A DNA stretch of 45,060 bases from a virus (taxonomy: Duplodnaviria > Heunggongvirae > Uroviricota > Caudoviricetes). Of the stretch, positions 1 through 11,669 are shown piece by piece. The notes under the pieces are model-generated. The model was not told where the DNA came from. It ran no database searches and saw only the letters and a list, made by a program, of their open reading frames with translations. The stretch is taken from the IMG/VR virus record IMGVR_UViG_2718217795_000003, one strand, 5' to 3'. How positions within the stretch are numbered: position 1 is the first letter of the stretch; every line of letters starts with the position of its first letter. The translations under genes were made by a program, and so were the position numbers.

Positions 1-19
1 CTATTTGATAAATATTAAA

Positions 20-1315
20 TTAATTTTTCATTGCTTCGCTATGGGGCATGGTTGGGGCAAACTCGCTTAACTGTGTATTTAACAAAGCTACCTGTGCATT
101 ATTGTTTTCAGACATCCATTTTCCGTATACCTGAAATACCATTTGCGCATCTGCATGGCCCATCTGGTTTGCTATAAATGCCGGGTTAGCACCAGCTGTC
201 AGCGACCAGCAGGCATAAGTATGTCTCGACTGATATGATTTTCGATGGCGGAGTCCGGCACGTTTTATCGCTGCGTCCCACATCTGCCTTATTGAGTCAA
301 CGGTAAAATGGTCACCATAATTTTTTACTCTCGCTGACACTTCAGGTTGAAAAACAAAGGTGCATTTTTGTTTTTCTGTTCTGCCATACTCTCTGAGGTG
401 AACATCAATGATATGCTCTTTGCTCAGTCTCGTTAATGTCATCTGACTCCGGAGAGCGTCGATTGCTGGCTTAATAAGATGAATGACCCGATTGGTTCCC
501 GCCTGTGTTTTTGGTACCGTGAAACGGTCTTTTGCTAAATTTCTCCTGATCATCATTGTTCCATTTTTCAGATCTATGTCCTCCCATCCAAGTGCACACA
601 GCTCACCAGGGCGAACGCCAGTATAAACAGAAACACACCATAAATTTTTTGCTTGCTGATTTCTGCACGCATCGATAAGACGGATAAATTCCTCCCGCGA
701 AAGAGGATCCGGAATGGTTCTTGATTCCTTTAATGGCGAGATCCCCTTAAACGGATTATCTGGCAGGTAACCGTTATCAACACCAAACTGGAACACGGCG
801 TTAAGATTTGTCATGTAATTATTTACAGTTACAGCCGATCTCCCTGGTTGTGTAACAATATAGTTACTTTTGGGGATCTGGTATCCAGTCAGTAGCTCTT
901 TACGAACCTCCAGTAATTTTTCTTTATTAATCGATGAGGCAAGATTTTTTTCACCGATTATGCTCAGGATATTTTTGATGACGGCACGGTATGTGTTGAG
1001 TGATGTTTTGGCGACTTCAGTTTCTTTCAGTGCCAGAAATTTTTCAGCCAGTTCTTTTATGGTTAAATCTTGTCGGGCCTCACCAAATTTTTCCAGATTG
1101 CGTGAGGAGGGAAACTGTTTTGCATAGTCGAAAACACCAGTTTTTATTGCGTAACAAACAGAGGAGCGTAGTTCACCTGCAACGCGCCTGTTTTTTGCTG
1201 TGTCAGGAACCCCCAGATTTTCCCTGACTCTTACGCCTTTATAAACAAACCAGATACGTAATTTCCCTCCATGGTTTTCCACGCCTGTCGGATATTTCAT
1301 TTCAACTTCTCTCAT
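20..1315 (-). CDS. int: Phage tyrosine integrase (site-specific recombinase)
   Basis: 431-aa ORF; C-terminal catalytic region with R..HxxR..Y-type residues (..RHTYACWSL..GHADAQMVFQVYGKWM); followed by an excisionase-like gene, typical prophage end. attL would lie left of position 20 and is not resolvable here. Confidence 0.9.
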   Translation of the reverse strand: MREVEMKYPTGVENHGGKLRIWFVYKGVRVRENLGVPDTAKNRRVAGELRSSVCYAIKTGVFDYAKQFPSSRNLEKFGEARQDLTIKELAEKFLALKETEVAKTSLNTYRAVIKNILSIIGEKNLASSINKEKLLEVRKELLTGYQIPKSNYIVTQPGRSAVTVNNYMTNLNAVFQFGVDNGYLPDNPFKGISPLKESRTIPDPLSREEFIRLIDACRNQQAKNLWCVSVYTGVRPGELCALGWEDIDLKNGTMMIRRNLAKDRFTVPKTQAGTNRVIHLIKPAIDALRSQMTLTRLSKEHIIDVHLREYGRTEKQKCTFVFQPEVSARVKNYGDHFTVDSIRQMWDAAIKRAGLRHRKSYQSRHTYACWSLTAGANPAFIANQMGHADAQMVFQVYGKWMSENNNAQVALLNTQLSEFAPTMPHSEAMKN

Positions 1316-8835: not shown

Positions 8836-10623
8836 TTAAGTCTGAGCCTCACTCTCTTGGCCATAAGTGGCTTGCCAGTATCTCGCCGTAGGGTTCATTA
8901 GAATGTGCAATACAAGCCACCATGCAAAAATGCAGGGAGGTTGGTTGTAGTAACCGGCAGGCACATATCCGTGAGCTAGTTGATTTCGTAAATCACCATA
9001 GATTTTATCTACCAGTAAGGCCTGAAGATTGCCAATTATGTCTACGCCGAAAGCTTCAATAATCAGTGGATTATCTAGTAATCCCTTGAGTCCATTTCGC
9101 TCTTGCGAACCGTCCCCGTGAAGCTGCGATGGTTCCTCACCTTTAATTTTAGCCACATATCTCAGACTATTTTCGAGCTGGGGAATCAACACGTGGCATG
9201 CCGTCATAAAATCTCCATTGAAACCGCAAACCATACCCTTGATGAAAAACTCTTCATGCCCAAACGGGATGAAGGGATGATTGATGAACATATCGCGAAA
9301 AAACGCCTCCGAGATTGGATATTTCATTGTGATCTCATCTGTAGCAGGAATAATTTGCCCAGCTACTGCCAACTCATGGTCGATACGCATTCTCGTCATC
9401 ATTATGGGCCAAATAACTGCCCCATTTGCATCATCAATCCCCAATCCTGCGGGTATGCGAGCAAGTGTCATTCCCTCATGATCAATATGTGTTGATCCAA
9501 ACATCCAAGCTATGCTGTTGGCCTTTTGTTCTATTGCTTGAGCCTTAAGTCTCTCAATGCTGGTTGGCCGACAGACCAGCATCGCAAGTCTGAAAACCAT
9601 ATCAAACAAATCTCTTCCGACTACCCGACTCTTGGCTTGATGGACAATCTCACTAATATCTTGAGGGGGAGACTGAAGGATAGACATCTGGTGACGGGAT
9701 TCGATTTGGTAATCACGCATTTCTTCATACAGCGCAAGACGTTCTATTCGGGTTCCTGGAATATTAGCCAGTGCTTCAATAGCATTCTGCATGCAGGCTG
9801 CCGAAATCATACCGCCATCTTGGAATTTTGACTCTTCCAGATGTGTATCGGCAAGAAGCCGCCAGAATTCAAACTGTGTATCTCTGTCACAGCACCTATT
9901 CGCAATCGGGATTGCGGTTTTACAGGCATCGACGGCAAATGAAAATAATTTTTGAGCCAGATAGTTTTTTGTCAGAAACAGGAGTTCCTGGGCAATAAAA
10001 GATGGCTCACTCACTTTACAGTCGATATCGAGTTGCAGGAGTCGCAGCGGATAAGGTGAATCGCCTTGTTCTCTGGTACGTTCATACTCTGCTAGTAGAT
10101 GTGCCGAAAGCTGATCAAATTCATCCCTGAAATCAGTATGCTTTCGAAAAAAACAACACAGCCTAAGCGCACGCTCTAGGCGTTCTAAAGCACTAACCCA
10201 CGTCCCTTGCGATGTCATAATAGCTATACTGGACGCATAATAAGCACGGACTGCCAGCAAAGGAAAACGGATTCCACCAATTTTACGAACCCAAAGTGTA
10301 TCAGCAATACGAGCTTGAAGTTCGGGTAGCTCTATCGTCGGGCAAAATTGAGAAAGTACCTCCAGCGACAACCCGTTAATGTCATCCGGAATTGCAGATC
10401 TACCTTGGCTGCTTTGAAAGCACGGACCAAATGGTACCTGTGGATTTTCGGGACGAAAGTGAAAACCGCAAATATGGGTTAGCAGTCTTATCTCCGCTCT
10501 TCCATCACCTAGGCTAGAAAGATACTTTGTGATATCAAAGCAGGTAACTGGCAGCTTACTCTGGATTAAGGGGGATAAATCAATAGTGTTAAGTTCGTCG
10601 AGGCTGATATTAATATCGTCCAT
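8836..10623 (-). CDS. Orphan 595-aa protein with C-terminal Rx4H (HEPN-like) motif; candidate defence/abortive-infection effector
   Basis: Long uninterrupted ORF opposite to flanking genes in an AT-richer block; no Walker A motif; motif DLRNQLAHGY (R546..H551, coordinates 8971-8988) about 45 aa from the C-terminus; flanked by 218 bp and about 670 bp of non-coding DNA. Confidence 0.8.
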   Translation of the reverse strand: MDDINISLDELNTIDLSPLIQSKLPVTCFDITKYLSSLGDGRAEIRLLTHICGFHFRPENPQVPFGPCFQSSQGRSAIPDDINGLSLEVLSQFCPTIELPELQARIADTLWVRKIGGIRFPLLAVRAYYASSIAIMTSQGTWVSALERLERALRLCCFFRKHTDFRDEFDQLSAHLLAEYERTREQGDSPYPLRLLQLDIDCKVSEPSFIAQELLFLTKNYLAQKLFSFAVDACKTAIPIANRCCDRDTQFEFWRLLADTHLEESKFQDGGMISAACMQNAIEALANIPGTRIERLALYEEMRDYQIESRHQMSILQSPPQDISEIVHQAKSRVVGRDLFDMVFRLAMLVCRPTSIERLKAQAIEQKANSIAWMFGSTHIDHEGMTLARIPAGLGIDDANGAVIWPIMMTRMRIDHELAVAGQIIPATDEITMKYPISEAFFRDMFINHPFIPFGHEEFFIKGMVCGFNGDFMTACHVLIPQLENSLRYVAKIKGEEPSQLHGDGSQERNGLKGLLDNPLIIEAFGVDIIGNLQALLVDKIYGDLRNQLAHGYVPAGYYNQPPCIFAWWLVLHILMNPTARYWQATYGQESEAQT

Positions 10624-10996
10624 GTCGTCACCTTGATGATTTGTTAATGCGGGGGCAACATTAATAAATGTACTTGAGACCGCAATTTGTCGATGGAGCC
10701 AACATTTATAACTATGTGCTTCTACCCTCTGAATTTTTACATGTGAATTGCTAGCTTGAATAGCTCTATCATTATATACGTGGCACTAAATTATGGCTGT
10801 TTTTCGCTCAAAGCGGACTAGAAGGTTAGCTTGTGTCGGACTTTGCGTATTAAAAGAAGTGCTGGTGGTGACTAGTGGTTGTGCCCCATTTCCACAGAAA
10901 AAATCAGAGAAACTATACCCAATAGTTGTATTGAATCACTGACGAGACAGCCTCATATTCATCAGGACTGGTCTACGTCCAATACAGGAGGTTGTG

Positions 10997-11086
10997 GTGC
11001 TGGTTCTCAAATGTGCGCTGGCTATTACGGCTGTAATGGCGATTTATTGTCTTGCTATTGTTCTTATGGATCGCCTTTCTGACTGA
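10997..11086 (+). CDS. Candidate small hydrophobic peptide (29 aa, GTG start) resembling type I toxin / small membrane protein
   Basis: AGGAGG at 10986-10991, GTG at 10997, ORF M-LVLKCALAITAVMAIYCLAIVLMDRLSD, stop 11084-11086; one predicted TM helix plus charged tail. Not in the ORF track (too short). Confidence 0.3.
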   Translation: MLVLKCALAITAVMAIYCLAIVLMDRLSD

Positions 11087-11297
11087 TTTCACATTGGCGA
11101 GGTAACGGTAGTTAAGTAGAATGGCTGCGGGTGCTTGAGGCTATCTGCCTCGGGCATGAACACCAACGGCAGATAGAGAAAAGCCCCAGTTAACATTACG
11201 CGTCCTGCAAGACGCTTAACATTAATCTGAGGCCAATTTCATGCTAGACATATGTAGGTTAGCCTCTTACGTGCCGAAAGGCAAGGAGAAGCAGGCT

Positions 11298-11453
11298 ATG
11301 AAGCAGCAAAAGGCGATGTTAATCGCCCTGATCGTCATCTGTTTAACCGTCATAGTGACGGCACTGGTAACGAGGAAAGACCTCTGCGAGGTACGAATCC
11401 GAACCGGGCAGACGGAGGTCGCTGTCTTCACAGCTTACGAACCTGAGGAGTAA
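11298..11453 (+). CDS. hok: Hok/Gef-family type I toxin
   Basis: 51-aa product MKQQKAMLIALIVICLTVIVTALVTRKDLCEVRIRTGQTEVAVFTAYEPEE is a canonical Hok family sequence (recalled as HokD/RelF-like); AAGGAG RBS; in-frame upstream extension from 11241 corresponds to the leader/mok region. Confidence 0.85.
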   Translation: MKQQKAMLIALIVICLTVIVTALVTRKDLCEVRIRTGQTEVAVFTAYEPEE

Positions 11454-11522
11454 GAGACCCGGCGAGGGAGAAATCCCTCGCCACCTCTGATGTGGCAGGC
11501 ATCCTCAACGCACCCGCACTTA

Positions 11523-11548
11523 ACCCGCTTCGGCGGGTTTTTGTTTTT
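11523..11548 (+). terminator. Rho-independent terminator after hok
   Basis: ACCCGC-TTCG-GCGGGT hairpin followed by a T-run; a second strong hairpin GGCGAGGGA/TCCCTCGCC lies at about 11461-11482. Confidence 0.6.
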
Positions 11549-11669
11549 ATTTTCAACGCGTTTGAAGTTCTGGACGGTGCCGGAATAGAATCAAAAATAC
11601 TTAAGTAGCGCGCAGGGATAAGAGGGATGGTCCCTTAAAGGGGAGAGCTAATTATCCGGAAGGATTCTG

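Follow-up and report, generated by a model that had tools for sequence, protein, structure and literature searches.

The small open reading frame (ORF) considered here spans 29 codons on the plus strand of a stretch of 45,060 nucleotides (nt), hereafter called the window, from a virus of the Caudoviricetes (IMG/VR record IMGVR_UViG_2718217795_000003), and lies upstream of the hok gene in a prophage segment. Comparative sequence analysis indicated that this ORF is, in all likelihood, a real protein-coding gene provided with its own promoter. The family that it represents very probably consists of uncharacterised, narrowly distributed small membrane peptides, separable from hok and unrelated to the gene for a protein of 595 amino acids (aa) found upstream. 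The complete statement that we favour, with less assurance than the coding nature of the ORF, is that it is an autonomous gene of Qin/Rac-like prophages for a 29-residue single-pass inner-membrane peptide acting in the membrane, whose transcript probably runs into hok.

Evidence for a coding function

The sample consisted of 120 loci from viral contigs, 7 from species-representative genomes and further loci found by BLAST, its main part being gathered with a degenerate pattern that covered the initial 21 nt of the ORF; these 21 nt were excluded from the substitution counts. Among the 137 occurrences, one was an unrelated chance match and two were cut by contig ends. The frame was open in all 131 related copies that were not cut by a contig end, with 29 codons in every case except one copy of 31 and with no premature stop, and these sequences represented 34 nucleotide haplotypes and about 25 peptide variants. 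Similarly, the ORF was intact in 10/10 of the BLAST-found loci spanning it.

The 35 variant alleles were distributed over codon positions 1, 2 and 3 as 9, 6 and 20 (chi-square p=0.0095), and 19 of the 35 changes were synonymous in the peptide frame, against 29% expected (p=0.0015), these p-values being approximate because the haplotypes are related and not independent. The corresponding counts were 6/35 for the frame of an overlapping 67-aa ORF (30% expected) and 7/35 for that of a 39-aa antisense ORF (24% expected), and the sole other frame that followed the peptide frame was the antisense frame sharing its wobble positions, as expected. An earlier note on this DNA, made from the sequence alone, had named synonymous-site conservation as the observation that could speak for another frame; once determined, it favoured the peptide frame over the alternative one.

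Among three deep lineages, namely the main prophage type, the L012 type (77% nucleotide identity) and a Shigella plasmid copy (79%), the ratio of nonsynonymous to synonymous substitution rates (dN/dS) was 0.10-0.20 (simulation P 0.003-0.019). The diversity per site was 0.058, 0.048 and 0.135 at codon positions 1, 2 and 3, compared with 0.19 for the leader and 0.24 for the spacer of the promoter. Moreover, at least five insertion or deletion events were counted among close relatives in the 130 nt upstream, against none in the ORF.

The open reading frame, its start codon and its annotation

The coordinates proposed in the earlier note were exact to the base: the Shine-Dalgarno (SD) sequence AGGAGG (10986-10991) is followed by GTG at 10997, which opens 29 codons closed by TGA at 11084-11086, with the predicted product M-LVLKCALAITAVMAIYCLAIVLMDRLSD. 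Its placement of the ORF between the 595-aa gene and hok, overlapped by a TTG-initiated 67-aa ORF, was equally true. A further in-frame GTG is found at 10994, just 2 nt from the SD, where most relatives carry GTC, GCC or another triplet, and GTG 10997 was therefore taken as the conserved start; in the Shigella copy, ATG stands at this position. The SD and the start codon were kept in the homologous loci, the start being GTG, or ATG on the Shigella virulence plasmid (pINV) and in L148. The SD variants of the relatives (AGGAGG, GGGAGG or AGGAGA) lie at equal distance, 5-6 nt from the start in essentially all haplotypes. By itself, the motif was not significant, AGGAGG-N4-9-RTG being seen 7 times in the window against 3.2 expected, and it is the comparative evidence, not the SD-start motif, that places the ORF beyond chance.

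The word "unannotated" used in the earlier note applies to the RefSeq record with 100% identity to the window and not to several other annotations. The ORF was called as a coding sequence in AH01 (WP_000960667.1), in REL606 and BL21 (ACT39199.1, ACT43394.1) and in the Prokka annotation of pWR100, and the older REL606/BL21 annotations labelled it "membrane protein" or "conserved hypothetical protein". The NCBI pipeline usually left the region empty. The position "immediately upstream of hok" was likewise correct in part: the stop codon is 7 nt from the hok -35 hexamer, but 42 nt from the 5′ end of the hok messenger RNA (mRNA; ~11129) and 212 nt from the hok ATG.

Probable promoter and leader

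The hexamer CATATT was present in 87/87 haplotypes and began 43 nt upstream of the start codon in 86 of them, while TTGAAT or TTGAAG was placed 17 nt upstream of this -10 element in 75/87, with TTGAGT in the same place on the Shigella pINV. The 17-nt spacer between both hexamers occurred in 17 versions, and the diversity per site was ~0.04 for the -10 hexamer against 0.24 for the spacer and 0.19 for the leader. In an alignment of 29 representative haplotypes, unrelated upstream sequences converged on the same two hexamers. Promoter function was argued from the fact that the hexamers and their spacing are fixed while the spacer varies. Conservation thus points to a promoter belonging to the small gene itself, independent of phage operons, from which transcription would start at ~10964-10967 and produce a leader of ~31 nt.

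The -35 hexamer was lost in nine haplotypes (L037 and L048 among them; window 10929-10946), in which the imperfect repeat TTGAATCAATGATGAGA had become the perfect palindrome TCTCATCAATGATGAGA, reading TCTCATCA-A-TGATGAGA. This change looks like a quasi-palindrome template-switch mutation. On the minus strand, the promoter-like site GTGATT-16-TATAGT (10912-10939) was found in 69/88 haplotypes, and CTGACT-16-TATAGT on pINV; transcription from it would run leftwards across the conserved segment 10800-10904 (~100 nt). Since 55 of 70 cargo genes have plus-strand orientation, a divergent promoter serving the upstream cargo gene was not retained as a general rule. An operator for LexA or a repressor within the promoter was likewise rejected, inspection of the alignment by eye having revealed no convincing conserved palindrome.

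Predicted peptide and proposed mode of expression

The hydrophobic helix with a charged tail described in the earlier note was correct. The peptide has one predicted transmembrane helix (residues 6-24), preceded by K5 and followed by the tail D-R-L-S-D, which reads D/E-R/H-L-S-D across the variants. It comprises 29 aa, with a grand average of hydropathy of 1.74, a mean hydropathy of 2.58 in its best 19-residue window (6-24) and a net charge of 0. L8, A9, I10, I16, Y17, L19, L23 and D29 were invariant, and C6 and C18 nearly so.

In the mechanism that we propose, the sigma-70-type promoter TTGAAT-17-CATATT (10931-10959) would generate a transcript from ~10965, and the ~31-nt leader with its exposed AGGAGG would direct translation from GTG 10997. 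The helix, the lysine on its N-terminal side and the short acidic/basic tail would lead to insertion of the product into the inner membrane, where it may bind another membrane protein or alter the membrane. No terminator was found between the stop codon of the small gene and hok; since none precedes hok, the transcript probably continues past the hok promoter as far as the terminator of hok. The small gene forms the conserved flank on the right of a hypervariable cargo slot; hok/sok usually comes next, yet the two are genetically separable. A consensus SD on a short leader would suit a protein meant to be made, as in benign small membrane regulators, better than a silenced toxin, and our guess as to its role is a membrane modulator or exclusion factor expressed in the lysogen, rather than a tightly silenced toxin.

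Genetic context and independence from hok and from the upstream cargo

The window belongs to an E. coli lambdoid prophage of the Qin/Rac-like kind, and the chromosome of strain CFSAN061763 was 100% identical to it. The gene order is DUF977, the 595-aa gene, a 505-nt intergenic region, hok/sok, rem, a small hypothetical gene, ydfU (DUF968) and the antiterminator Q gene. The features of the region are as follows.

8836-10623, minus strand: 595-aa gene, with DUF4209/EMARD_N and DUF7380
10795-10818: hairpin remnant at the left edge of the module, of which only the loop and the right arm (CGCTCAAAGCGGAC) are intact in the window
10879-11082, plus strand: TTG-initiated 67-aa Gly/Cys-rich ORF, overlapping the small gene in another frame and judged not to be a gene
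10912-10939, minus strand: promoter-like site GTGATT-16-TATAGT, back to back with the promoter of the small gene
10931-10936, plus strand: predicted -35 hexamer TTGAAT of the small gene, sigma-70-type
10954-10959, plus strand: predicted -10 hexamer CATATT of the small gene
10986-10991, plus strand: Shine-Dalgarno sequence AGGAGG, 5 nt upstream of GTG 10997
10997-11086, plus strand: small gene, 29 codons and TGA (11084-11086), predicted product MLVLKCALAITAVMAIYCLAIVLMDRLSD
11086-11115, minus strand: weak antisense promoter-like site, TTAACT-18-TGAAAT in the window, with TAAAAT in some relatives
11094-11122, plus strand: hok promoter TTGGCG-17-TAGAAT, conserved in 77/88 haplotypes
11129-11303, plus strand: hok mRNA leader and sok region (Rfam RF01794, 112.7 bits, E=3e-26)
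from 11241, plus strand: mok
11299-11453, plus strand: hokD, annotated by RefSeq in the identical record, the product matching Pfam HOK_GEF
11522-11549, plus strand: hok intrinsic terminator, the first terminator 3′ of the small gene

The hok locus is intact, its 5′ end (11126-11134) being complementary to its 3′ end (11510-11518). The 3′ end of the hok transcript (fbi region and terminator, 11462-11543) also gave a sub-threshold Rfam match to isrK (25.7 bits, E=0.007, gathering score 50), an Hfq-binding RNA of a Salmonella prophage (Rfam).

The small gene had hok as its physical neighbour in 78/87 haplotypes. In nine haplotypes (L003, L012), a hairpin and then a DUF1971 gene in convergent orientation came next, in place of hok. 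No terminator belonging to the small gene was found, the next hairpin in these hok-less contexts being oriented as the terminator of the convergent gene. Conversely, hok was found with only the last 7-12 codons of the small ORF in O157:H7 (L010, 1190-1235) and in some QueH-carrying prophages (L011, 1199-1222). In L011, the ORF remnant begins right after the QueH stop codon, and the remnants are fused to different upstream cargo. Such remnants show that recombination or deletion break-points have occurred recurrently inside the ORF. The ORF ends 42 nt upstream of the 5′ end of the hok mRNA, which sets it apart from the components of the hok/sok locus; since it ends 5′ of the hok promoter, the native hok mRNA does not include it, and the translational coupling that links mok to hok does not apply to it. 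That the ORF is left over from a duplication of hok was considered and rejected, as only chance-level repeats of 9-11 nt were found between 10793-11128 and the hok locus, with no protein similarity.

On the other side, across 70 distinct contexts the upstream neighbour was one of at least 40 different genes, with plus-strand orientation in 55 contexts and minus-strand orientation in 15; among these genes were SIR2, FRG, DUF4145, DUF2326, DUF4209/EMARD_N, QueH, acetyltransferase and alpha/beta hydrolase genes. The hypervariable slot corresponds to window 8836-10830, between the DUF977 replication-module gene and the small gene, and the same slot was found in L002, L005-L009, L012, L146-L148 and viral loci. 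Its right boundary is the hairpin GTCCGCT-N10-AGCGGAC, of which the window keeps the remnant listed above and which was complete elsewhere in the alignment of representative haplotypes; in other E. coli prophages, the similarity begins at ~10793-10804, irrespective of the upstream cargo gene. The slot has the appearance of an island of defence genes or morons whose right-hand junction is fixed. The idea, raised in the earlier note, that the peptide might be a partner of the 595-aa protein was abandoned because the upstream neighbour is hypervariable, the 595-aa gene being just one of these many cargo genes.

Distribution

The promoter and ORF were found (at least 80% coverage) in 1878/5426 complete E. 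coli genomes, most copies being 90-95% identical. The carriers included ATCC 25922, LF82, REL606, E. coli C, ATCC 8739 and the REL606/BL21 lineage, and further carriers were E. albertii, E. ruysiae and Shigella chromosomes. In REL606, the locus was placed at NC_012967 1,619,908-1,620,168, on the minus strand. The K-12 strains matched the window only from 11284 on, relBE replacing the segment, and this absence from K-12 is probably why the gene was never studied. Full-text searches on peptide strings and accession numbers retrieved no paper describing the small ORF, and it went unmentioned in papers on Hok diversity, hokW-sokW, Pas small RNAs, the icsP promoter and the CFT073 small proteome (for two of these, in the main article).

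The copy on the Shigella virulence plasmid

A 79.6% identical copy was found on 135 plasmids from all four Shigella species and enteroinvasive E. coli. In pCP301, it occupies 219878-220013, ~290 nt upstream of icsP/sopA. The pINV fragment of ~300 nt corresponds to window 10886-11185, and the similarity stops beyond it; it was located at L140 2886-3240 (pCP301 ~219760-220120) and, in pWR100, at CP037924 ~90800-91160. The fragment contains TTGAGT-17-CATATT, AGGAGG, an ATG start and the intact 29-codon ORF MLVLKGTLAIAAVMTIYCLIVVLMERFSD, together with the hok promoter, which can still be recognised (TTGGCG-18-TAGAAT), and the first hairpin of the hok leader in decayed form. In the Prokka annotation of the M90T plasmid pWR100 (PMC7132871), the ORF is CP037924_00134, complement(90908..90997), and the start-site table obtained by differential RNA sequencing (dRNA-seq) in the same study places the icsP starts at 90709 and 90726. 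Upstream of ompT, the icsP paralogue of K-12, a homolog was looked for and rejected, no such fragment being present there. The much-studied icsP regulatory region therefore includes a piece of phage-derived DNA in which the small gene is intact and the hok promoter decayed.

Alternative explanations

The alternative that survived best, although we consider it unlikely, was that the small gene encodes the toxin of a new type I pair, i.e., a membrane-damaging peptide restrained by an RNA, with a cis-antisense RNA from 11086-11115 as the most plausible candidate, or else a small RNA encoded elsewhere. Its 29 aa, single helix and charged tail match what is generally known of TisB, ZorO and DinQ-type toxins (PMC2887945, PMC3919570), and it adjoins another type I system. 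In this sense, the "second small toxin" suggested by the earlier note stood as regards size and helix architecture; it found no backing in a known toxin family, in a conserved antisense promoter or in the leader, which is short and not unusually structured. Profile searches of Pfam, NCBIfam, PHROGs and PADLOC (E up to 10) returned only noise and assigned the peptide to no family, that of known toxins included. It also fell outside Hok/Gef, BLASTP against the window HokD giving no alignment and Pfam PF01848 no match.

The earlier note had proposed a search for an antisense promoter around 10950-11100, and the sole candidate site, that at 11086-11115, was not conserved. It overlaps the spacer of the hok promoter and the stop codon of the small gene, and an RNA starting from it would be antisense to the entire small gene. 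As TTAACT-18-TAAAAT on the minus strand, the site was over threshold in 38/88 haplotypes, which speaks for a type I pair; it was below threshold in the window, where the -10 hexamer is without the A at position 2, and missing where hok is absent.

In favour of a type I pair, RNAalifold paired CAGGAGG (10986-10992), containing the SD, with CCUUUCUG (11076-11082) at the 3′ end of the ORF through 7 base pairs including G-U pairs; this pairing showed one-sided changes only and no compensatory ones, with a covariation term of -1.68, and thus does not yet speak for a function. Between the upstream segment and the start region, a complementarity of only 8-9 nt was read by eye. The fold of 10968-11128 was no more stable than those of shuffled sequences (z = -0.04), and the initiation regions of five lineages gave z values from -1.0 to +2.3 with no shared fold, which does not correspond to a structured, inert transcript. 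The conserved segment 10800-10970 was not unusually structured on either strand (z ~0), and no Rfam family was found over the ORF. A terminator-like hairpin within the ORF (11021-11040) was discarded as weak and not conserved on pINV. The short leader with its exposed consensus SD, folding like shuffles, differs from known type I toxin mRNAs, and the pINV copy has ATG and a perfect SD with no obvious partner.

A chance or decaying functionless ORF, open only because it is short and young and hitch-hikes with the widespread hok module, was judged improbable. Besides the non-significant SD-start motif and the usual omission of the ORF by the NCBI pipeline, several observations speak for it or weigh against a functional gene. 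The family is narrow: a phmmer search with a 30-aa version against 1.84 billion representatives retrieved near-identical sequences only, in 9 clusters, all at least 83% identical, with no distant relatives or new contexts. The promoter preserves 8/12 consensus positions, just under the scan threshold. The main sample was recovered through the ORF's own 5′ end, so that copies damaged there were missed, and the relatedness of the haplotypes, mentioned above, weakens the p-values. Moreover, the M90T dRNA-seq table (PMC7132871) lists no start having, within its 100 nt upstream, the promoter of the small gene, the remnant hok promoter or the divergent site, so the Shigella copy may be silent; the pINV copies are all identical, and hence the signal of selection may predate the capture and the copy may be a silent fossil.

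Two divergent BLAST-found variants also looked relaxed, with dN/dS of 0.4-0.7, not significant. In L147 (FT130), at 1547-1654, an 11-nt deletion between short direct repeats took away the stop codon together with some of the hok -35 region, adding six residues to the product, in which K5 is changed to T. L148 (XJ6.1), at 1511-1597, has an ATG start, an in-frame codon deletion and an Arg and a Ser gained in the helix. Each was found in 16/5426 genomes, and together they account for <2% of carriers.

Against a chance ORF stand the codon-position bias, the low dN/dS and the absence of insertions and deletions in the ORF compared with several in the 130 nt upstream, as well as the hexamers fixed while the spacer diverges, the GTG to ATG switch of the start and the fact that the codon deletion of L148 kept the frame. 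The chance origin that the earlier note had left as one of its options was accordingly discarded: frame, start, SD and dedicated promoter are conserved across diverged lineages, with a substitution pattern of the coding type.

Still less probable was a cis-regulatory element in which transcription, or translation of the upstream ORF, into the hok promoter would modulate hok, the sequence of the peptide being unimportant. The stop codon 7 nt from the hok -35 hexamer, the lack of a terminator in between and the presence of hok as the next gene in most haplotypes are in its favour; however, purifying selection acts on the amino-acid sequence, the gene is retained at loci that lack hok or have only a decayed copy, and the hok loci of O157 prophages function without the small gene (hokW-sokW study, PMC8621323). 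Finally, the possibility that the real gene is the overlapping 67-aa TTG ORF (10879-11082) or the antisense ORF, both called hypothetical proteins by some pipelines, can be set aside as extremely unlikely in view of their synonymous counts given above and, for the 67-aa ORF, of a missing SD and a 5′ half lying in sequence that is replaced in other lineages.

Significance

The small gene, as a probable coding unit, is present in ~35% of complete E. coli genomes, including laboratory and reference strains, and it would have escaped study mainly for its absence from K-12, in a context where annotation systematically misses small membrane proteins. If active, it would be an extra component of the hok region, which is widespread in prophages and borders a cargo hotspot with many candidate defence genes; if inactive, it would exemplify how far comparative evidence alone misleads for 29-codon ORFs. 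A more ambitious and doubtful proposal is that the peptide acts as a third functional component of prophage hok loci, either as a new type I-like membrane toxin with an antisense RNA starting within the hok promoter region or as a small membrane peptide of which the product or the read-through transcript modulates Hok killing, phage exclusion or prophage release. If true, this would mean a new small-protein family carried by roughly one E. coli strain in three, a relic of it remaining in the control region of Shigella icsP.

Comparison with known systems

The short type I toxins of E. coli include TisB (29 aa), ZorO (29 aa), DinQ (27 aa) and ShoB (26 aa). The small gene resembles them in size class, in the single hydrophobic helix with few charges and in its stand-alone locus, here beside another type I system in a prophage. 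It differs from them in having no sequence similarity and no conserved RNA partner found, and their leaders are long and translationally inert, whereas that of the small gene is short and unstructured, with a consensus SD. With Hok/Gef and mok it shares the nature of a small membrane peptide, predicted in its case, and Cys in or near the helix; unlike a member of that system, the small gene and hok each occur without the other.

HK97 gp15, a superinfection-exclusion protein, is an example of a lysogen-expressed prophage moron for a small membrane protein. Similarly to such morons, the small gene encodes a predicted small membrane protein, has its own putative promoter, lies between conserved phage modules and is found only in some related phages, although it shows no homology to them and is without its own terminator in the hok context.

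The small inner-membrane regulators of E. coli K-12 comprise MgtS (31 aa), AcrZ (49 aa), KdpF (29 aa) and YohP. The small gene has no homology with these proteins and, unlike them, is carried by a mobile element and absent from K-12; nevertheless, with its ~30 residues, single predicted helix, apparent promoter of its own and good SD, this is the class to which it is closest in anatomy.

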